A stretch of 32,000 bases of DNA from NCBI GenBank assembly GCA_000503875.1, contig CP006913.1:600001-632000 (forward strand). The letters are read 5' to 3'. Each line of letters opens with the position of its first letter. The stretch's first letter is position 1. A program made the translations under genes and the position numbers. Source of the stretch: Candidatus Saccharimonadota bacterium. Lineage in GTDB: Bacteria; Patescibacteriota; Gracilibacteria; Absconditabacterales; Absconditicoccaceae. This document shows positions 4,510 through 26,792 of the stretch, piece by piece. Under the pieces are notes generated by a model. It searched no databases. It had not been told where the DNA came from and saw only the letters and a list, made by a program, of their open reading frames with translations.

Positions 4510-5157
4510 ATGAAAAACAAACTCAAATCAGCTATATACAAAGCAGGAATAGGAGCAAGCGTGCTTGCGGGTTTTTTGTTAACAAGTAAAGATGCTTTGG
4601 CTCAAAATATAGCAAGTAATCAGAAGAATAAACCTCAAATAGCGAATTCCAATATAAATACACTCAAAGTAGATCCTTTCGATCGAGTAAAATGATATGT
4701 AAACACTTCAGATCCTGTGGAAGTTGCTCACTATGACCTTCTTCTCAAAACCGAAAAGACACAAAAAGAATCACATATTTTAGGACTAAAAGTCGCTCTT
4801 CTCGCGCTTTACAACGATACAACAATTCCTCCACAAGATAAAAAAGCATTAGCTTTAATTATTTTTGAACAATGAGTAAATTTATCTCCAGGAACAAAAA
4901 ACAGAGAATTTTACGCAGAAAAATATATGCAAAGGTTAGAAAATGATCAAAACTTTTTTGATCTTTGTGTGAAATTTGGAGAAATGCAGTGAAATCTAAT
5001 GGCTGAAATAGCTAATTCAGAATCAATTAAAATATATAAAGAATGAGAACAAATAAGAAAAGAATGAGAACAAATAAGAAAAGAATGAGAACAAATAAGA
5101 AAAGAAATCGCTCTCCTTGAACAAATTTTAGATGCATTTCAAAAAGCCAACAAATAA
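4510..5157 (+). CDS. Secreted hypothetical protein (215 aa) with a C-terminal (EGEQIRK)x3 repeat
   Basis: Starts at ATG 4510 and ends at TAA 5155-5157. It has 6 in-frame TGA and I checked every codon. It has a signal peptide, 'MKNKLKSAIYKAGIGASVLAGFLLTSKDALAQ'. Confidence 0.7.
5041..5103 (+). repeat. Three perfect tandem copies of a 21-bp unit inside the CDS
   Basis: The unit 'gaatgagaacaaataagaaaa' occurs at 5041-5061, 5062-5082 and 5083-5103. Each unit carries one TGA. Confidence 0.9.
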
Positions 5158-8290: not shown

Positions 8291-9310
8291 ATGCTCCTTA
8301 CCCTCAACTGCTGAAGTTCCTCGATAAAATATGCTATCTTTGATGATAAGCTAAATTGTTTAACAAAATGAACACGTGAAAATATCAAAGATCATCAAAA
8401 AGAGCTTCAAAGCATCATCAAAAAACTCAAATTAGACAAAAATAACGAGAAACTCATAATTGCTCATCGTATAGTCCACGGATGACAGATTTTCACCAAA
8501 TCAACGATCATAACTAGCAAAAACATCAAGAAATTGAAATCTCTAAATACATTAGCTCCCCTTCACAATCCTATCCAGACCAAATGCATCAAATTTTGTT
8601 TAAAGCTCTTTCCAAAATCCCAAAATATTGCAGTTTTTGACACTGCTTTTTTCCAATGACTCAAGCCAGAACACTATCTCTATGCGCTCCCAAGCGATCG
8701 ACACAAAACCTATAATATCAGAAAATACGGTTTCCATGGAATATCTCATCACTATCTTATCCAAGAAACTATCAAAAAATTCCATACAAAAAATCTGAAA
8801 ATTATTACTTGTCATCTAGGAAATGGTGCAAGTATCACGGCTTCAAAGAACGGACTACCAATCACGACGTCTATGGGATTTACACCTACGGGAGGTGTGG
8901 TGATGGGAACCAGATGCGGCGATATCGATCCAGCAATTATCCCTTACATGATGCACCAGAAAAAACTTTCGATATCAGACATTACCAAAATTATCACTTC
9001 CCAAAGCGGACTCCTCGCTTTGTCCGGAAAAACCAATGATATGAAAACATTATTAGAGAGACAGAAAAAAGATCCCAAAGCGAAGTTGGCAATCCAGATT
9101 TTTATCAATCGTATCGTAGAATATATCTGATCATACATTGCCCTAATGAACGGCGCGGATGTGATCGTTTTTTCATGAGCTATAGGTTACAGATCTGCAT
9201 TTATTCGCAATCAAATCAAAAAACATTTCACTTATCTCCCAAACATAAAATTTCTCACCCTAGAAACCAACGAAGAACTTATGATGGCCAAAGAAGCACA
9301 AAAAGGATAA
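8291..9310 (+). CDS. Short acetate/propionate-kinase family paralog (339 aa)
   Basis: Starts at ATG 8291 and ends at TAA 9308-9310. It is in frame with ORF 8873..9130, and I translated 8291-8872 and 9131-9310. Motifs are 'LNC(TGA=G)SSSIKY', 'HRIVHGG', 'LAPLHNP', 'VFDTAF', 'YGFHGISH', 'MGTRCGDIDP' and 'ETNEELMMA'. Confidence 0.85.
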
Positions 9311-9820: not shown

Positions 9821-10912
9821 TTATTCCAATTCAGCAGTAGCTTCACTAATTTCAGCATTTTCTATATCAATTTCATCTTCAGCAGCTTGTAAAGCATCAT
9901 CATCCAAGACTTTTTTACCCATTCTTATTTCTTTGATTTTACCTTGGATATCTTTTTCGATAGAATTTCTAAGTTTTTCGTCAGTTTCAAGAAGTTGTAT
10001 AAATTTTTCTTTTCCTTGAATTTTTTGACCACCAATAGTATAAAATGCTCATGATCTCGTAGCTAATTTAAGGATACTAGCTGCTTCAACCAAATCAGCA
10101 ATATGATCATATCCCATCTTCCATCTTACAGGAAGTTCTGCTGTCTTAAATGGAGCGAATATTTTGTTTTTTGCAACTTTGATTTTTGCATAATAACCAA
10201 CTTGTTCTTTATCATCCATTATTTTTTCTCATTTTCTAATTTCTATTCTTTGAGAAGCAAAAAATTTGAGTGCATTACCTCCAGATGTTGTTTCTGGATT
10301 ACCAAACATTACTCATATTTTCATACGAATTTGATTGATAAATACACAGGTAGTACCACTTTTTGCTAATACTGAAGCTAATTTTCTAAGTCATTGAGAC
10401 ATCATTCTTGCTTGAAGTCACATATAGCTATCTCCCATATCTCATTCTACTTCAGCTCTAGGAACTAAAGCAGCTACTGAATCTATAACAATCAATTTAA
10501 CAGCTCCAGATTTTGCTAATTCTTCTGCTATTTGTAATGCTTGTTCTCCATGATCAGGCTGAGAAAGAAATAAGTTTTCTGTATCAACACCCAATACTCT
10601 TGCATAGTGAGGATCAAGCGCATGTTCAGCATCAATAAAAGCCGCTACTTGTCATCTTTTTTGTATTTCTGCGATAGCGTGAAGTGCTATTGTTGTTTTA
10701 CCAGAAGATTCTGGACCATAAATTTCTACAACTCTTCATTCTGGATATCAACCACCCAAAATAAGATCTAAAACATACGATCAACTATGAAATGTACTAA
10801 CCATTCCAACGTTTGCATTTTCTCCCATTCTCATAATGGCTCATTTTCCGAAGTGCTTTTCAATGGTTTTGAGTGCTTCGGTCAACTCCGGTTTGTTTTT
10901 CTGTAAGGTCAT
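9821..10912 (-). CDS. recA: Recombinase RecA (363 aa)
   Basis: I translated the full gene, from ATG 10912 to TAA 9821-9823. It has 11 in-frame TGA. Motifs are '[12 protein letters not shown]', '[10 protein letters not shown]', '[17 protein letters not shown](TGA)DMGDSYMG(TGA)LQARMMSQ' and '[10 protein letters not shown]'. Confidence 0.97.
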
Positions 10913-11001
10913 ACTATATATATAGAGTGTAAAACTAAGAAATGACTAAGAGAAGGTAAACGCAGAGACGTTTCAAATCTTCTCATTCATCGTCACAAAG
11001 A

Positions 11002-11029
11002 ATTTTATTGTTCTTTTTCAAAAAATCAA
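11002..11029 (-). promoter_or_regulatory. Candidate recA promoter
   Basis: On the minus strand, TTGATT (11029-11024), a 16-nt spacer, then TAAAAT (11007-11002). Confidence 0.4.
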
Positions 11030-11063
11030 GAGATTTTTTAGTAGTCTTGAACTAGCATATTGT

Positions 11064-11116
11064 ATTTTGTCAAAAATTACTGTTATTTTGTCAAAAAAGA
11101 CTTGATTTTGTCAAAA
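11064..11116. promoter_or_regulatory. Three phased direct copies of the 12-mer ATTTTGTCAAAA in the recA-lexA divergent intergenic region
   Basis: Exact copies lie at 11064-11075, 11085-11096 and 11105-11116, spaced 21 and 20 bp apart. The core TTTTG-T-CAAAA is a palindrome. The third copy overlaps the lexA promoter (TTGATT 11102-11107, TATATA 11124-11129). Confidence 0.5.
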
Positions 11117-11171
11117 CATTTTATATATATAAGGTGTAAATAATAAAAAATTTATTTATTAAATATTTCTC

Positions 11172-15978: not shown

Positions 15979-18066
15979 TTAATCTTCTTTCTTATCGGGA
16001 GTAACTTTTATATCGGGAGTGAGTTTTTTATCAGCTCGCTCAGTGATATCTGTTACAAAAGGTTCTACTTGTGTATATAAATTATAACCAAGGAAACCAT
16101 ACATACCCAATTTTACTACCTCTGCAGAAGCTTTGACTATTTTAACAACTTTAGCAACTCTTCATCAAACTTTAACAGAAGATTTTAAAGCAAGACTAGC
16201 AGCATTTCATGCACCACCAGAGAATATTCATGCAACATCAAGAACAACAGATCCCAATCAAACTCATGCTCTGATCCATCTATCTTTTGTTGTTAAATCT
16301 CTCGATGCAATACTTCTATCAAATATAGCAGTTCAAATATCATATAATCAACCAACAAAAGGAAGAAGAGATACTCATAAATCACCTGCCTGCCATCATA
16401 TATCTTCCCATGATTCTGTTCAGTTAGCTCCTTCTATAGCTAATCCCAACAACATTCATCAAATCATAAATTTTCAAGCTTTAGTTTTTTTCATAAAATT
16501 ATCTATACCACTATTGATTTTCATTGTTTTTGTAACAAAAATCGAATGTTTTTCCAATTTCAGAATTTCTGCTTTAGTTAACTTAGATAATTCAAATCAA
16601 GCCGTTCATTCGGCTTTAGTTATTTTTTGATTTGATTGTTTTATAATTTCTTTTGCTTCTTTTTGATATTTTTCTTTATTTTTTGGATCATTTTTCGCTT
16701 TATTATCAAGATATTTTAGTTGTTCTTGTGTTTTTTTATGAATTTCTTTGATATCAGTTTCTATTGTATCAATTTTCTTTTTTGTTTGTTCAAATTTTTT
16801 AGATTCTGTTTCAACACCAGTTTTTATTTGTGCTATATTTTTTCAAAACTTTTTAGCAATAGAACTTCCATATTTCATTTCAAAATCTTTCAACGTCTTG
16901 ATTTTACCAGTTTCTAAATCATTAAGCATAGCTGTAATATCTTTTTTATAGAGAGAAAACTCTTGTTTCAAAGACGATTCTTTTAGCCACTTTGTCATCC
17001 AAGAATGAACATCTGATCTAATTTCTACTCATTTTCTCAGAGCTGCATCAGGATATTTAGTAAATGGTCATCAAGATAAAATATAGCTAAACCTTCCTTT
17101 CAATGTGTTTCATCTCCAAGTTCACATATCAAATTTAGGAACAAATCCCATTTGATACATTCTCATTAAAATATAAAATTCTGAATTTCATTCTTCTATC
17201 ATTTTTTCAACTTCTTGTGTAGCTCACACTTCTTCATCACTCAATTCAACATCTTCTGCCGGAACTTGATTTTGGCTATCTAAATTCTGATCTTTATTTT
17301 CATCCGAATCAACTGGCAAAATTTGTTCTTGATCATTTTTTTCTTCATTTTTTTTATCACTATTTTCATTTTCTTCTTTATTTTCAGCTTTTTCTTTCTC
17401 TTCTTTTTTTGCTTTTGCTTCATCTGTCCAGGGGAACCAAGATTTTACTTCTTTTGTCCATTCATCAGGAATAATTTTTCTACCAAGCCACAAGGCTCCA
17501 GTAGCTATCCCAGACCAAAGAATACCTTTGAAAATTCTTTTGAAAAAGCCAGGTTTTTCTTTTTTTCCTGATTCCTCATCTTCAGCATCTTGAGAAGATT
17601 CTTTGAGCTTTTTATCTGTCCACGATTTTATACTTTTTCCAATCAAAGGAAGATTTCCCAAAGTATTTGCTATTAATCATCCATAAAACATATTTGCAAA
17701 GAAACTAGGAGTTCATTCCTTTTCTTCTTCATCTGACTCTTTTTTTTCATCTTCTTTATCGTCTTTTTTTTCATCTTTTTTGAGTATTTCATCTTTTAAT
17801 CCATCAAGTTCTGTAGAAAAAGAATCTATTTTTTTTGAAAGATCTTCCAACTTTTTAATTTCATCTGCATTTTCATCTACATCTTTTTTAAGTTCATCGA
17901 GATGCTCAGTTATTTCTTCTTTTACCAAAGAAATATCTTCAGAAACTTCTTTCTGTTCTTTTTGACGTTTATCAGCATCTACCTGCTGTTTTACCTCAGC
18001 AAGATGCTCCTCAATTGTTTTAACTCTTTTTTCAAAACATTCTATTTTTTTAATATTATTTGTCAT
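15979..18066 (-). CDS. Large membrane protein (695 aa) with an acidic coiled-coil N terminus and a Gly-zipper, PT-TG-like C terminus; family not recognised
   Basis: Runs from ATG 18066 to TAA 15979-15981. ORF pieces 17224..17661 and 17713..18078 share the frame, and I translated 15979-17223. Hydrophobic segments include 'GILWSGIATGALWLG', 'FMIGGMLLGLAIEGANG' and 'DLGVSLLPFVGGLYDIGTAIFDRSIASRDLTTKDRWIRAGVGLGSVVLDVAGIFSGGAG'. The plus-strand ORF 16133..16630 is its antisense shadow. Confidence 0.8.
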
Positions 18067-18127
18067 TAGAAAACACAATACATATAAAGCTTTCTAATTA
18101 TAATCCAAACACCTCTAAAAAACCAAA

Positions 18128-18152
18128 AAATCTGCCCTTTCCCAGCAGATTT
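18128..18152 (-). terminator. Terminator after the deaminase-sufS unit, upstream of the large-protein operon
   Basis: The stem 'aaatctgc' / 'gcagattt' has a 9-nt loop. On the minus strand it is followed by 'tttttggtttttt'. Confidence 0.5.
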
Positions 18153-18211
18153 TACTTGACATATTTTGTTAATATATTTTAAGAGAAAAAGTTGATTTAT
18201 TTATCAATTGA

Positions 18212-18423
18212 GCAATAAAAATAACAGAATAAAAGAACAAACAAATATATCATAAGTGAGCGCTTTATATTTTAGGCAGAAAAAACACATGGAGCCGATT
18301 TGTTTGTGTTTTTTGCCGTTAAAAAATATAAACAGCGAACGTTGATATATTGTTTATTATTAAAATCAAACTACAAACGGTGATATATTTGTTTATGAAT
18401 ATATTTTGTTTATTTTTTATTGT
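18212..18423. repeat. Structured intergenic element E1 (~212 nt): long imperfect terminal inverted repeats closing nested hairpins
   Basis: The left arm, 'GCAATAAAAATAACAGAATAAAAGAACAAACAAATATATCA', pairs imperfectly with the right arm, 'TGATATATTTGTTT..TTATTTTTTATTGT'. There is an inner hairpin at 18275-18317 (GGCAGAAAAAACACA..TGTGTTTTTTGCC). It shares its termini with E2. Confidence 0.5.
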
Positions 18424-18436
18424 GAAAATATATTGA

Positions 18437-19630
18437 TTATATCTTACTCAATACCTCAAAAAACTTCTCAACATCTTCTTCATCATTGTAAATATACGTA
18501 CTCATTCTACACGTACCTCCCAATCCCAATTGTTTATGCAATGGATACGCACAATGTCAGCCACAACGTACAGCAATATTATGTTCAGCAAAAATTTCTC
18601 AGATTTTATTAAAATTTAATTGATTTTTCAAAACAAAAGAGAAAGCTCCTACCCTATTTTCTGATACAAAAGTCCCTATTAAATCTACTTTACCAGCCAA
18701 TAACTCAAATCATTTCAAAACTTTTTTTACAATTTCTTGTTCATGTTCCCACATTTTTTGCATTCATCCAATATTATTTATATATTCGATTGCTTTCAAA
18801 AGACTAACCGCACCTATAATATTTGGTGTTCCTGCTTCAAATTTATCTGTTCCTGAAGTCAAAGTATGACCAGTAACACTCACATCCTCAATAGTTCATC
18901 ATCAAGCAATCATCGGAGATAATTTTTTAAGTCGTTCTTTTTTGAGATAAGAGCCACCAATTCCTGTGTATGCCATCATTTTATGACCAGTAAACACTAG
19001 AGCATCACATCCTATATCCAGGACATCAACCACAAAATGAGGCACAGATTGAGATCAATCTATCAAAAAGAATGTATCATCACGTAATTGTTGTTTAAGT
19101 TTTTTAACATCATATATTTGACCTGTCACATTGGAAACGTGGCTACAAGCAACAACTTTTACTTTTTCATCATATTTTTGAGAAAAATCATTTCGATCTA
19201 GCGTATAATCTTCTTTTATTCAAAAAAATTTCACTTCAAATCCGTATTCTTCCGCCAAAATTTGCCAAGGTAAAACGTTTGCATGATGCTCCCAAATCCC
19301 AAGTAAAACCACATCTCCTTTTGTCAAAACTTTAGATCTCACTAATGCTCAGGCTATAATATTTATAGCATATGTTGAATTGTAGGTATAAAAAATTTCA
19401 CTTGCTTTACACCCAAGTAAACGAGCAACAGCCGTTTTACTATCATAATAAGCTTTTTCTGATCTTTCTGAAAGTTCATATAATCCCCTATGAATATTTG
19501 CATAATCATGAGCTACAAAATCAGAAACTCCATCAATCACCACCTTTGGCTTTTGACAACTCGCCCCATTATCCAAAAAAACCAATCATGGATTATGCTC
19601 AAATATCGGAAAATCTTTTTTATACATCAT
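18437..19630 (-). CDS. sufS: Cysteine desulfurase, SufS/CsdA-type class V aminotransferase (397 aa)
   Basis: Runs from ATG 19630 to TAA 18437-18439, in frame with ORF 19349..19585. I checked every triplet in 18440-19348 and found only TGA. Motifs are 'FLDNGASCQKP', 'HHANVLPWQ', 'CSHVSNVTG', 'FTGHKM' and 'VRCGGHCA'. Confidence 0.9.
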
Positions 19631-19641
19631 AATTTTATAAA

Positions 19642-20109
19642 CTAATATAAAATCTTATCCTGTTTTTCTGCCCATTTTTGGAAAACTTTAATGGCTTCAT
19701 CACGAAGCAACTGTTGCATCGGTAAATGTCTTTTTTCCAAAGGTCTATCCAATTCTTCATAAATGTATTGATCATCGAAATTAATATGTGCCGCATCTTC
19801 CTTGGTATTTCCATAATACACTTTATCAAATCTCGCCCAATAAATCGCGCCCAAACACATAGGACAAGGTTCACAACTCGTATATAATTCACATCCATCA
19901 AGTTGAAATGTTTTCAAATTTTGACATGCATCACGAATAGCTGTCATTTCTGCATGAGCTGTAGGATCATTAGTTGAGGTTACTTTATTTCGCCCTCTTC
20001 CTACTATTTCTCCATTTTTGACAATCACTGCCCCAAAAGGACCACCCGCATTTGATTCCATATTTTTTAGAGATAATGCTACTGCTTCTCTCATAAACTC
20101 TTGGTTCAT
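19642..20109 (-). CDS. CDA-fold zinc deaminase, guanine-deaminase (GuaD)-like nucleoside/base deaminase (155 aa)
   Basis: An intact ORF from ATG to TAG. Motifs are 'PTAHAEMTAIRDA', 'TSCEPCPMCLGAIYWA' and the C-terminal 'FDDQYIYEEL'. It lies 11 nt upstream of sufS. Confidence 0.85.
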   Translation of the reverse strand: MNQEFMREAVALSLKNMESNAGGPFGAVIVKNGEIVGRGRNKVTSTNDPTAHAEMTAIRDACQNLKTFQLDGCELYTSCEPCPMCLGAIYWARFDKVYYGNTKEDAAHINFDDQYIYEELDRPLEKRHLPMQQLLRDEAIKVFQKWAEKQDKILY

Positions 20110-20163
20110 AGTTTTAATAATAAATAATGTAAAATGAATAGTTTATAATAATTTAATAATTGA

Positions 20164-20310
20164 GCAATAAAAAGAACAAATAAAATGAATTACATTATCA
20201 ACAACCCAACATTATACATAGTCAAAGCAGCAATACAATTATAATTAGAAGATAATTCTAAACAACAATATTGCTTTGATAATTAATGAGTTTTATTTGT
20301 TTTTTATTGC
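20164..20310. repeat. Structured intergenic element E2 (~147 nt), related to E1
   Basis: 'GCAATAAAAAGAACAAATAAAA' (20164-20185) pairs with 'TTTTATTTGTTTTTTATTGC' (20291-20310). Nested stems include 'ttatcaa/ttgataa' and 'agcaata/tattgct'. The flanks 'ATTGA' and 'GAAAG' are shared with E1. Confidence 0.5.
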
Positions 20311-20326
20311 GAAAGAACTTTATATT

Positions 20327-21178
20327 TTATTTTTTTACAATAATTTTATCACTTTCCAAACTTCCCAAATCTATTTCTTTCAACAATTCAAATTCTGAAT
20401 AATATTTTTTGAGTAGTTGATAATTGATAATCTGTGGTTGAATAGGGATAGCATTGTTTATATAGATTTTTTTATTATTTCAAAGATGAACAATCATTCT
20501 ATGTCATCCGGGTAAATATGATAATTTTTGAATATCTGGAAATGCCTCTTTAATTAACTGAATATCATCCATTAAATCAGCAGTAGGTTGTAAGAAAAAA
20601 ATCCCAGTCAACGCTCATCAAGAATTAAAAGATAATACCTCTAGCTTAACAACCCCAGAATTTCATAGAGAATTTCAAGAAAATAATTCAAATAGATGTT
20701 CTTTATATACTCCGAATTTTTTATTTTCATGGAGCATAATCAGTTCTGGAGGCGAAAACAATACTTTTACAAGGACAGTCTTCGGTGCTTTATAAACAAT
20801 AATTATATCTTGAACGAATGGATATTCTTTTTTGATGGTTTGAATAATTGTCTTCGTATTCCAAGAAATTAAATAAAAATTTTCACCTTTAATCAATGAA
20901 CTTATACTTTTATACAAATAAGGATCATCATAAATTTGCGCACTACTACGTGCATAATCTATTTTACCAATACGATATTCTGGCACAAAAATAGTGTATT
21001 TAAGCAACAAAAATCCCCCATAAAAGAAAACAAGAATACCAAAAAAAATCCAAAAATACAAAACAGGTATTTTACGAAGATATCATCAAGCTTTTTTCCC
21101 AATCATCGTTCATGAAGAAAGAGATGGTGAAACAGATTTTTGCTTGGTAAATTTTCTTTGAACAGCAAATTGCACCAT
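20327..21178 (-). CDS. ftsQ: FtsQ/DivIB-like cell-division protein (TM plus POTRA, 283 aa)
   Basis: Runs from ATG 21178 to TAA 20327-20329, in frame with ORF 20675..21061. I checked the flanking triplets. The TM segment is 'YFWIFFGILVFFYGGFLLL'. The POTRA-like segment is 'IGKIDY..ISSLIKGENFYLISWNTKTIIQTIKKEYPFVQDIIIVYKAPKTVLVKV'. The C terminus reads 'EIDLGSLESDKIIV'. Confidence 0.65.
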
Positions 21179-21686: not shown

Positions 21687-21868
21687 GAAGAAGAGATTAA
21701 TAATAAACTGCCGATTTTCAAGGAATCAGTCACTCTATACATACAAAGTTTCGACAAAAAAGCAACTCCATTTAGTTGATAATCGTTACTGAATTTATAG
21801 TATATAGTCACAAAACCATTACCAATAACAACGAAATAATTTAAATTTTTATACTTTCAAAAAAGATT

Positions 21869-22648
21869 ATGTTCAAAAAGATATTATTACTCTGAATTAT
21901 TATTACTAGTTTGATTTCTATTGTACGTTGAGATTATAAAGAGATTGTAACAACCGTACTCAATAACATCCAAACAACAAATGCCAATAAAACCGATCTC
22001 CAAAAAAGACAGACTTTTGAAAATTATATCCCAAAAATAAAAAGTTTAACATCAATAGATCAAAGAGTAAAAGACGCTTTGATAACGTATCTCAATGCAA
22101 AAATAGCAGAATTAGATGAAACGCTCAAAACAACAACATATGAGTCAAACATTACCAATATCGACAAAGCTTTGATTGAAAAATCTTGGCTCGAACGACA
22201 TAATACAGAAAGAAACAGTCTAGATCTGGCCTCATATACAATCAGCCCAGAACTCAACAATACCGCCCAAAACCGAGCCAATCATTTGGCTGAATTAAAT
22301 GATGCAACCCACAAAAGACTCTCAACGGATGGCTATTATAATTACGAAAGTATAAAATCACGATTTTCCGATTTATGAGTAACTTTTCCAAAAGAACAAA
22401 ATGGTGTTGCAAACTTTTCTGAAAATCTTGCTTACCAATATTTAAGCTGCAAAAAAGATGATTGTACTACAGAAGTATTAGCAGCACTCAAAAAATGCTA
22501 TGCATTTTTTATGAGTGAAAAAAGTTACAAATGACCTCATTATAGAGCGGTTATAAGTCCTTATTTCACCCAAATGGGATATGGAGTATCAAAAGTAGGA
22601 ACCAAAATCTTTATCGTAACTCACTACTCTGTAGATCTACTTCAATAA
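21869..22648 (+). CDS. Secreted CAP/SCP (PR-1-like, YkwD-type) domain protein (259 aa)
   Basis: Runs from ATG 21869 to TAA 22646-22648, in frame with ORF 22079..22378. I checked all codons. The signal or anchor is 'MFKKILLLGIIITSLISIV'. Motifs are 'WLERHNTERNS', 'LNNTAQNRANHL', 'HKRL', 'NFSENLAY' and 'GPHYRAVISPYFTQMGYGV'. Confidence 0.75.
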
Positions 22649-23824
22649 ATCATAAGTTTCTTTCGCAATCATATATTCTTCATTCGTAGGAACAACCATC
22701 AAAACAGCCTTAGATTCTGGTGTAGAAATTATTCTTTCTTCTCATCTAAAGTCATTTTTTGATTCATCCAAAGTAATACCTAACCATCCAAGTTTATCTG
22801 CAATCATTTTTCTAATATACGCAGAATTTTCCAAGGTACCAGCAGTCAAAACAACAGCATCGCATCCATTCAAAATCGCTGTATAAGAACCAATATATTT
22901 CACAATTTTATTTACATATACATCCAATGCCAAAGTTTCTTGTGTCTTACCAGCAATATGACCATCTTCAATATCTCTCATATCACTAGACACACCAGAA
23001 ATACCAAGTACTCCACTCTGCTTATTGAGCATATGATCAATTTCATCTATAGTCATATTTTCTTTTCTCATCAAAAAAGCAACAATAGCAGGATCTAAAT
23101 CACCTGATCTTGTACCCATAGTCAACCCTTCAAGCGGCGTAAATCCCATCGACGTATCAACTACTTTTCCACCCTTAATAGCAGAAACACTAGCTCCATT
23201 TCCTACGTGACAAACGATAATATTCATATCTTTGATATCTTTGCCCAAAATTTCAGCAGCTCTATACGATACATATTTATGAGAAGTACCATGAAATCCA
23301 TATCTTCTTACCTTATATTTTTCGTAATATTTATAGGGAATAGAATACATATATGCACTCGGTTCCATCGTTTGATGAAAAGAGGTATCAAATACTGCAA
23401 TATTTGGGATATTTGGTAAAACATCTTCTACTGCGTTAATTCCCATCAAATTTGCAGGATTATGAAGCGGTGCAATTTCACATAATTCATTGATTTTGGT
23501 TTTTGCATAATCATCTATTCTCGCAGAATTGACAAATTCTTCTCCACCATGAACTACTCTATGTCCAGCAGCATCAATTTCTTCCAATGAATTCAATACA
23601 CCATGAGTCGGATCAACCAATAATTCCAACACTTTTTTAAGTGCTATACTATGATTTTCCAAATCACCTTGAATTTCAACTTTACCAATCTTTCCTACAT
23701 GTTTGATAACAGTTCATTTTCCTATTTTATCAACCAATCATTTAGACAAAACATCTCATTCTGGCATAGATATCAATTGGTATTTCAACGACGAACTTCC
23801 TGCATTCAAAACTAATATTTTCAT
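22637..23824 (-). CDS. ackA: Acetate kinase (395 aa)
   Basis: Runs from ATG 23824 to TAG 22637-22639, in frame with ORF 22742..23662. Motifs are 'MKILVLNAGSSSLKYQL', 'GHRVVHGG', 'APLHNP', 'VFDTSFHQTM', 'YGFHGTSH', 'MGTRSGDLDP' and 'VVPTNEEYMIA'. Confidence 0.95.
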
Positions 23825-26618: not shown

Positions 26619-26792
26619 AGATAAATGTACTCTTTCCAAAATCAATATACTACAAAAAAATAAAAAGCAATTAAGTCGCCACACTTATATGTTTTTTATA
26701 GGAAATAGCAATATATTTATCAAGAATAACAAAAAATACCTCTATTTCCTCTGAAAATCATCAGAATAAAGGTATTTATAATTAACTATAAA

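Follow-up and report, generated by a model that had tools for sequence, protein, structure and literature searches.

Two intergenic palindromes, E1 (18206–18427) and E2 (20158–20314), lie on either side of a tadA-like deaminase gene and sufS in a 32-kb stretch (contig CP006913.1, positions 600,001–632,000; hereafter the window) of the genome of candidate division SR1 bacterium RAAC1_SR1_1, a member of the Absconditabacteria within the Candidate Phyla Radiation (CPR). Our data indicate that E1 and E2 most probably represent a lineage-specific family of non-coding, non-autonomous palindromic repeats of the MITE type (miniature inverted-repeat transposable elements), with copies likely to be mobile among SR1 relatives of RAAC1_SR1_1. 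The pair had originally been picked out of the window as two related hairpins with shared termini, for which paralogous structured non-coding RNAs were the lead idea and MITE-like elements or recombination sites the other options. It was the MITE-like option that gained support, from the presence of further copies, from orthologous sites at which some genomes have an element and others none, from nesting and from tandem copies. Small size and lack of coding content, terminal inverted repeats, dispersed copies within the DNA inspected and insertion polymorphism, all hallmarks of MITEs, were found for these elements. In the literature searched, no report of such a family in CPR bacteria was found, and a review of MITEs in prokaryotes from 2024 includes no example from the CPR/SR1 group; the family is, within that literature, previously undescribed in CPR bacteria, although its kind (MITE/ERIC-like) is already known. 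Even streamlined, tiny CPR genomes would carry dynamic selfish or regulatory DNA, here in the form of an active-looking, nested palindromic family.

Two palindromic modules and their arrangement in E1 and E2

E2 (minus strand, 157 nt) is a complete and typical copy of the first of two modules, type I, and is matched by the nhmmer type I profile with E = 1.3e-38. Type I elements are ~157 nt long, with termini TTTCGCAATAAAAAAC...TGTTCTTTTTATTGCTCAATT (a terminus pair also written TTTCGCAATAAAAAAC ... TTATTGCTCAATT) and a conserved interior; their terminal inverted repeats of ~22 bp, GCAATAAAAA[G]AACAAATAAAA and its complement at the other end, close a rod that spans the entire element and are conserved in ~13 copies. 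In gene orientation, the left terminus of E2 (TTTCGCAATAAAAAACAAATAAAA; 20291–20314, minus strand) is conserved in ~13 copies across genomes, while at the right terminus (TTTTATTTGTTCTTTTTATTGCTCAATT; 20158–20185, minus strand) 9 of the first 11 copies match the 21-mer TGTTCTTTTTATTGCTCAATT exactly. Read in the same direction, E2 lies between a 310-aa gene, whose stop codon precedes it by 12 nt, and tadA, whose start codon follows after 48 nt.

E1 (minus strand, 222 nt; nhmmer type II profile, E = 1.4e-54) is a composite in which type I termini surround a type II module, its parts being a right terminus (TTTTATTCTGTTATTTTTATTGCTCAATT; 18206–18234), a type II module comprising core and arms (18235–18361), a duplicated partial left arm of type II (18362–18397) and a left terminus (TTTCACAATAAAAAATAAACAAAA; 18404–18427), all on the minus strand. 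This make-up from two different modules was absent from the account given in the original prediction. Type II is a palindrome of ~125 nt in which the core and the apical loop are conserved and asymmetric, and the module nested in E1 is homologous to stand-alone copies at loci fetched from related genomes or contigs, which are given L-numbers here (L126, L167, L137, L143 (two copies), L175 and L252). Its apical hairpin (18275–18317, minus strand) bears the conserved, asymmetric loop AACAAAUnGGCUCCA. Other instances of type II nested in type I termini were seen in L132/L171 and in L168 (L168_b)/L170/L143, and the same partial arm duplication recurs in L143_x1 and L168_b. Both the inner hairpin and a direct repeat at 18343 and 18381 had been predicted within E1 and were found in the sequence; one copy of the repeat corresponds to the duplicated arm and the other to the left arm of the type II module. 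In gene orientation, 9 nt separate E1 from the sufS stop, and beyond the element come a canonical terminator and then the promoter region of the next gene.

The shared ends on which the two hairpins had first been linked were confirmed. The 15-mer ATTGAGCAATAAAAA at the left ends (in window coordinates) has two exact occurrences in the window (18207 and 20159) and no more, and the right ends read TTTTTTATTG(T/C)GAAA at 18413 and 20300. Overall, the left ends of E1 and E2 are 82% similar over 39 nt (18199 and 20151) and the right ends 78% over 40 nt (18388 and 20275). As had also been proposed, the terminal arms form imperfect inverted repeats, measuring 36 nt with 78% complementarity in E1, the longest inverted repeat in the whole window, and 22 nt with 82% complementarity in E2. 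The limits first assigned to the elements (~18212–18423 and ~20164–20310) were refined slightly, to those given above. A TATAAT box reported before E2 at 20144–20149 is present on the plus strand, but its position is not conserved at other copies. No open reading frame (ORF) of 40 aa or more was found inside E1 or E2, and full-length copies, in a family whose elements span 50–310 nt, all lie outside called genes. The spacers that hold E2 and E1 measure 217 nt and 358 nt (our own ORF call; 370 nt by the database gene call), respectively, whereas the mean spacer in this genome is 92 bp (PMC3812714), and the element family would account for the unusually long spacers around tadA–sufS.

Distribution of the family among SR1 genomes

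Matches to the type I and type II profiles were found at more than 20 places on SR1-type contigs, which come from 8 or more assemblies or samples, with E = 1e-33 to 1e-57 for full-length homologues in related genomes. By contrast, profile searches of 29 unrelated control loci gave no match, and within the window they returned E1 and E2 only. A search for further copies had been suggested at the outset, and these were recovered at unrelated loci both in the same genome and in relatives. The part of RAAC1_SR1_1 that was inspected (~58 kb) holds 3 copies, the metagenome-assembled genome (MAG) CAYRHE01 has them on at least 4 contigs, and L165, L167 and L143 carry at least 3 each. Tandem copies and a doubled terminus were also seen.

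A scan of a genome collection with the terminus consensus yielded 36 matches (RAAC1_SR1_1 itself was not among them), 29 of which were chance matches in unrelated taxa and 7 of which were true elements in Absconditabacteria-type MAGs, 4 of the 7 being different contigs of one MAG. In a metagenome collection, the terminus 21-mer TGTTCTTTTTATTGCTCAATT was found on 6 JGI contigs, all SR1-like. Viral contigs gave 0 matches to this specific 21-mer and to two type II patterns, and neither a blastn search of E1 against plasmids nor one of E2 against phages gave a match. These searches bear directly on the concern that the two hairpins merely share the low complexity of AT-rich intergenic DNA. The genome has a GC content of 31%, matches to the 15-mers with ≤3 mismatches occur at chance frequency, and the bare 15- and 16-mer termini produced at least 120 matches at chance level, many of them in unrelated viral contigs, all of which would be expected of a chance resemblance. 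Such an explanation is nevertheless left with a negligible probability by the exact 15-mer, which marks only the two elements in the window, by the strength of the homologues in related genomes set against none in the control loci, and by the restriction of the 21-mer to SR1-type contigs in the metagenome collection, with none in viral ones.

Copies occupy short intergenic spacers, where they typically start 9–14 nt past the stop codon of a co-oriented upstream gene (5 independent loci) and leave the downstream leader (~46–50 nt) or terminator intact. Others lie in divergent and convergent spacers, and the genes flanked elsewhere are unrelated housekeeping genes (smpB, tsaB-like and hrcA-like). 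Because several copies sit at contig ends or beside a run of Ns (L163 4783–4884, the start of L137, the end of L170, the start of L174, and L138), the family probably explains some of the assembly breaks and unresolved repeats in SR1 MAGs; repeats of this kind may break or mask SR1 assemblies.

Occupancy of orthologous spacers

Orthologous loci were obtained via SufS homologues, and their spacers were then compared. Five orthologous spacers proved to be filled in some relatives and empty in others, and the gene order around sufS was conserved whatever the spacer content. Before tadA (site A), the window carries the type I element E2 and L167 also has a type I element, while L126 has a minimal 50-nt hairpin with the same termini and L125 an empty spacer of 35 nt. 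After sufS (site B), the nested E1 of the window is replaced by a type I element at the same insertion point in L125 and L169 and by a stand-alone type II element in L252, and the site is empty in L253 and L127–L130. Upstream of smpB (site F), the window genome (L173) holds a type I element, L132 a nested element and L175 type II alone, with an empty 23-nt spacer in L176; the smpB copy of the window genome and E2 are 143 kb apart and share one orientation, the former being placed 14 nt past the upstream stop. Two divergent spacers that are empty in the window (both unstranded), one between the CAP and DUF212 genes (site C, 21687–21868) and one between recA and a lexA-like gene (site E, 10913–11171), contain type I in L167 and stand-alone type II in L137/L169, respectively. 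Site D is filled in relatives and empty in the window, and the comparison genomes are without any spacer there; at the ackA/CAP junction an element is present in relatives and the spacer is empty or absent in the window. Because insertion sites differ between close relatives, the elements could be used as strain-level markers. Separately, site B of L126 (6069–6240) holds an unrelated palindrome of ~170 nt (-34 kcal/mol), and further hairpin-repeat families may exist in these genomes.

Since each of the sites flanking tadA–sufS is filled or empty independently in relatives while gene order stays constant, the bracketing of these two genes is incidental. Judged by these occupancy patterns, the two insertions are independent events that coincide at this locus and do not form a functional unit. 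The same comparison speaks to the idea that E1 and E2 are site-specific recombination sites, attC-like or Xer/dif-like, that delimit a tadA–sufS cassette. Like integron attC sites, the SR1 elements form imperfect hairpins whose ends are conserved while the centre and the length vary, placed directly 3′ of co-oriented ORFs, and the two directly oriented hairpins with variable interiors in the window give a superficially attC-like picture, to which may be added that more distant relatives have no tadA at this position. However, neither of the R″/R′ core motifs of attC (RYYYAAC and GTTRRRY) was present in the outermost 40 nt at either end of 12 copies, whichever strand was read, so that an attC-like form of the recombination-site option failed its motif test; gene order at sufS is constant whether the sites are filled or empty, and the flanking sites vary independently; the same elements flank smpB, tsaB-like and hrcA-like genes, that is, syntenic housekeeping genes and not cassettes; and an integrase was not seen in the gene lists of the DNA inspected. 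Recombination sites are accordingly a very remote explanation for these elements.

Sequence exchange between copies

E2, at site A of the window, shares 93% identity with the element at site B of L125, while the SufS proteins of the two genomes are 86% identical; by this measure, copies are more alike than the genomes carrying them. The element at site A of L167 (L167_A) is a chimera, its right half being 99% identical to E2 and its left half resembling another copy in its own genome. Across window positions 20101–20250, which include the right half of E2 and the tadA leader, the window and L167 share a 150-nt non-coding patch of ~99% identity (98–100%), compared with 70–92% in the flanking coding DNA, and the identity breaks off near the apex of the palindrome. 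This pattern suggests a recent recombination tract or a conversion started at the hairpin.

Folding, covariation and strand preference

The rod-like folding that had been proposed was borne out by comparison with shuffled sequences, as E1 and E2 gave fold z-scores of -4.2 to -6.1 on both strands and 0 of 200 dinucleotide shuffles folded as well. When compensatory substitutions were sought, as had been suggested, they were strong in type II, while type I did not rise above shuffles. In a 9-copy alignment of type II, 39 pairs were 95% paired, compared with ≤61% for slid partners, and compensatory changes were found in 16 of the 39, a number reached by 0 of 500 shuffles. G-U combinations filled ~4 of 351 cells in this alignment, and no pair varied on one side only. 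Type I was 94% paired, compared with ≤70% when slid, and its 17 G-U and 11 A-C combinations showed no strand asymmetry; likewise, neither strand had a consistently better fold energy. Together, the nearly pure Watson–Crick covariation and the lack of a preferred strand fit palindromy of the DNA itself, or a constraint that acts equally on the two strands, and not an RNA gene.

Searches for known RNAs and for transcription signals were in line with this. Rfam 15 (including 6S, ROOL, GOLLD and HEARO) gave no match in the window at gathering thresholds; the region 18050–20400 returned noise only at E ≤ 10, and 7 related loci returned transfer RNAs only, matching the earlier impression that no known RNA family could be recognised. 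A promoter scan was at background (19 sites versus 16.7 expected), and no promoter–terminator unit was found. The TTGCTC in the right terminus was considered as the -35 box of a promoter and set aside, having no consistent -10 partner.

The lead idea of the original prediction, that E1 and E2 are paralogous structured RNAs, fared poorly against these results, and we consider it unlikely, whether such RNAs are taken to be stand-alone small RNA genes (6S-like rods) or cis-acting hairpins of 3′ untranslated regions (UTRs) or intercistronic regions selected for stability, processing or polarity control within operons. The absence of Rfam matches at either gathering or relaxed thresholds, of a consistently better folded strand and of a promoter–terminator unit (the terminator after E1 exists with or without the element) all count against it, as does the pairing itself, since type II is nearly without G-U and the G-U of type I is balanced by A-C, which is atypical of selection at the RNA level. 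In addition, orthologous occupancy is variable, interchangeable and sometimes empty, and copies are found in divergent and convergent spacers too. What a structured RNA would account for well is the strength of the fold z-scores and of type II stem covariation, the conservation of asymmetric loop and internal-loop sequences, the constant position 9–14 nt past a co-oriented stop at 5 independent loci with orientation shared in 5 of 6 copies, and termini that are better conserved than flanking coding DNA.

We also weighed whether the elements could be transcription-terminator hairpins of a mobile or expanded, SPRITE-like kind at which the transcript from upstream would end, as their location directly 3′ of stop codons and their long, stable hairpins might suggest. 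A terminator scan did not call E1 or E2, the closing stem is not followed by a U-tract, and several copies lie in divergent promoter regions. Moreover, a separate canonical intrinsic terminator, which the scan did call, lies 3′ of E1 and outside it (18117–18153, minus strand), and this terminator is kept in relatives with or without the element. A terminator function of this kind is highly improbable.

Comparison with known repeat families

Among known systems, ERIC (enterobacterial repetitive intergenic consensus) and Correia elements are the closest functional analogues of the SR1 elements. ERIC, together with YPAL/RU, resembles them in consisting of imperfect whole-length palindromes of ~127–170 bp that are non-coding and multi-copy, and ERIC likewise occupies transcribed intergenic regions within operons or 3′ of genes, with a presence that varies between related genomes. 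Both also include length variants, which in ERIC arise from internal insertions or deletions. In contrast to ERIC, the SR1 elements come from a CPR bacterium and not from Gammaproteobacteria, have no sequence similarity to it, show no TA-type duplication, and consist of two modules that nest and alternate at the same spacers. Where ERIC has inserted at a 3′ end, the stability of the transcript can change (PMC10969869).

Correia elements (CREE) of Neisseria and other MITEs (RUP, QMITE2 and BrickBuilt) share with the SR1 elements a length of ~100–200 bp, terminal inverted repeats of 20–26 bp and an intergenic location. Correia-type and other bacterial MITEs are often co-transcribed, with RNA hairpins that are cleaved by RNase III; QMITE2 is found mainly in 3′ UTRs, and in pneumococci repeats are found inserted within each other (PMC10969869). 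Established for Correia elements, as distinct from the SR1 family, are TA duplication, IHF sites and outward promoters. Conversely, the palindromy of SR1 elements extends over their whole length and is kept by compensatory changes, and a parent insertion sequence was not found among neighbouring genes.

REP sequences, BIMEs and REPINs, which RAYT (Y1 HUH) transposases mobilise, are also extragenic palindromes, often just 3′ of genes, mosaic, and with structure kept more than sequence. Their recognition takes place at the level of single-strand DNA hairpins, which would explain the Watson–Crick-only covariation of the SR1 elements. REPs are 20–40 bp long and G+C-rich, with a terminal GTAG or CGTC tag (PMC3733652, PMC2817692), whereas the SR1 elements are 125–310 nt long and A+T-rich with untagged ends, and so fall outside the definition of a REP. 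The motif GCTTTG(A/G)CTAC is found in the type I interior (20217–20231 in the window; also L125, L162, L167, L168, L169 and L173), and in 8 of 12 type I copies it puts GTAG on the opposite strand, directly at the base of the inner hairpin, which recalls the GTAG-tagged REPs. As a lead, this internal GTAG may be taken as a candidate pointer to a RAYT-like mechanism.

Mode of spread and possible host function

If the MITE-type reading is correct, copies would spread in trans via an enzyme, and whole-length Watson–Crick palindromy suggests that what is recognised would be a DNA hairpin or cruciform, or the paired inverted ends, and would not reflect an RNA function. Copies would in addition exchange sequence by ectopic recombination. 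A secondary role as RNA hairpins, with effects on mRNA stability or processing, is possible, as with ERIC, Correia and REP. The elements are probably co-transcribed, given their location within transcription units or at the 3′ ends of these, in which case the hairpins would be candidate regulators of operon mRNA stability in organisms whose gene regulation is scarcely known.

Several observations weigh against a family spread by transposition. No consistent direct repeat of the kind expected from target-site duplication flanks 12 copies, in which TTA often precedes the left end, and the exact junctions at sites A, B, C and F cannot be defined because the divergence between filled and empty sites is too great. 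Neither a transposase nor a recombinase was seen adjoining any copy in the DNA inspected (~58 kb of the 1.18-Mb genome), nor was an autonomous element with the same termini found among the neighbouring genes examined, which by eye included only methyltransferase/restriction-like, LexA-like, HrcA-like and sugar-transferase-like genes. The occurrence of different modules in the same spacers could reflect exchange of the interior in an old resident hairpin and not repeated transposition. Furthermore, the covariation of type I was no higher than that of shuffles because its stems are mostly invariant, and termini and asymmetric loops are better conserved than neutral DNA; together with the 150-nt patch of ~99% identity, this conservation of termini and loops leaves room for a host function under selection. 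Finally, of the 6 copies that lie between co-oriented genes, 5 run in the direction of those genes, a weak tendency that is not statistically significant and is compatible with a role at the RNA level.

A more specific scenario, which we advance tentatively and regard as rather doubtful, departs from ordinary transposase-driven MITEs. In it, single-strand DNA hairpin modules would target either the site just past a stop codon or a resident hairpin's loop and would be moved by a CPR enzyme (HUH/RAYT-like or other), the terminal hairpin possibly being domesticated as an operon-internal RNA or DNA signal. Such targeting would explain the re-use of spacers by different modules, the whole-length covariation, the conserved loops and the conservation above that of coding DNA.

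Gene context and genetic code

All four genes around E1 and E2 are on the minus strand. In the window, tadA and sufS are separated by 11 nt; the tadA-like gene (19642–20109, minus strand) encodes a 155-aa protein with the Pfam domain dCMP_cyt_deam_1, and sufS (18437–19630, minus strand) a 397-aa protein that is 100% identical to the RAAC1_SR1_1 entry and contains 11 in-frame TGA codons read as Gly. In L127–L130, whose SufS proteins are 73–75% relatives, tadA is missing between the upstream gene and sufS (~4971–5001), and in L169 and L252 the tadA–sufS spacer is ~120 nt long, with part of a type II left arm inside it. Neither the shared minus strand of the four genes nor the reading of TGA was part of the original prediction. 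Throughout the window, TGA serves as a sense codon (Gly, genetic code 25), for example in recA (9821–10912) and sufS, an assignment made because RecA motifs place TGA where Gly is expected. Under table 11, local ORFs were fragmented, and reading through TGA gave whole genes. The same contig in NCBI MAG GCA_003543185.1 carries fragmented code-11 gene calls, while the ENA copy (a Rifle sediment assembly) carries full-length calls. The RAAC1_SR1_1 genome is closed at 1,177,760 bp, and the paper describing it mentions no transposases and speaks of short repeats that were unresolved (PMC3812714).

Downstream of E1, the segment 18083–18153 (minus strand) comprises the terminator hairpin, with ATGTCAAGT before it and a TGGAnTATAAT-like promoter after it, upstream of a 699-aa gene. 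The terminator, ATGTCAAGT and the TGGAnTATAAT-like promoter are conserved at orthologous positions in L125–L129, L252 and L253, whether an element is present or not. Elsewhere, the window contains two acetate kinase paralogues (8291–9310, plus strand, 339 aa; 22637–23824, minus strand, 395 aa), alongside pflB, pflA, focA and a phosphotransacylase gene of the PTAC type. Further intergenic inverted repeats are located at 26689–26761 (30-nt arms) and at 11015–11116 (24-nt arms), and the latter, in the divergent spacer between recA and the lexA-like gene, could be a regulatory site.

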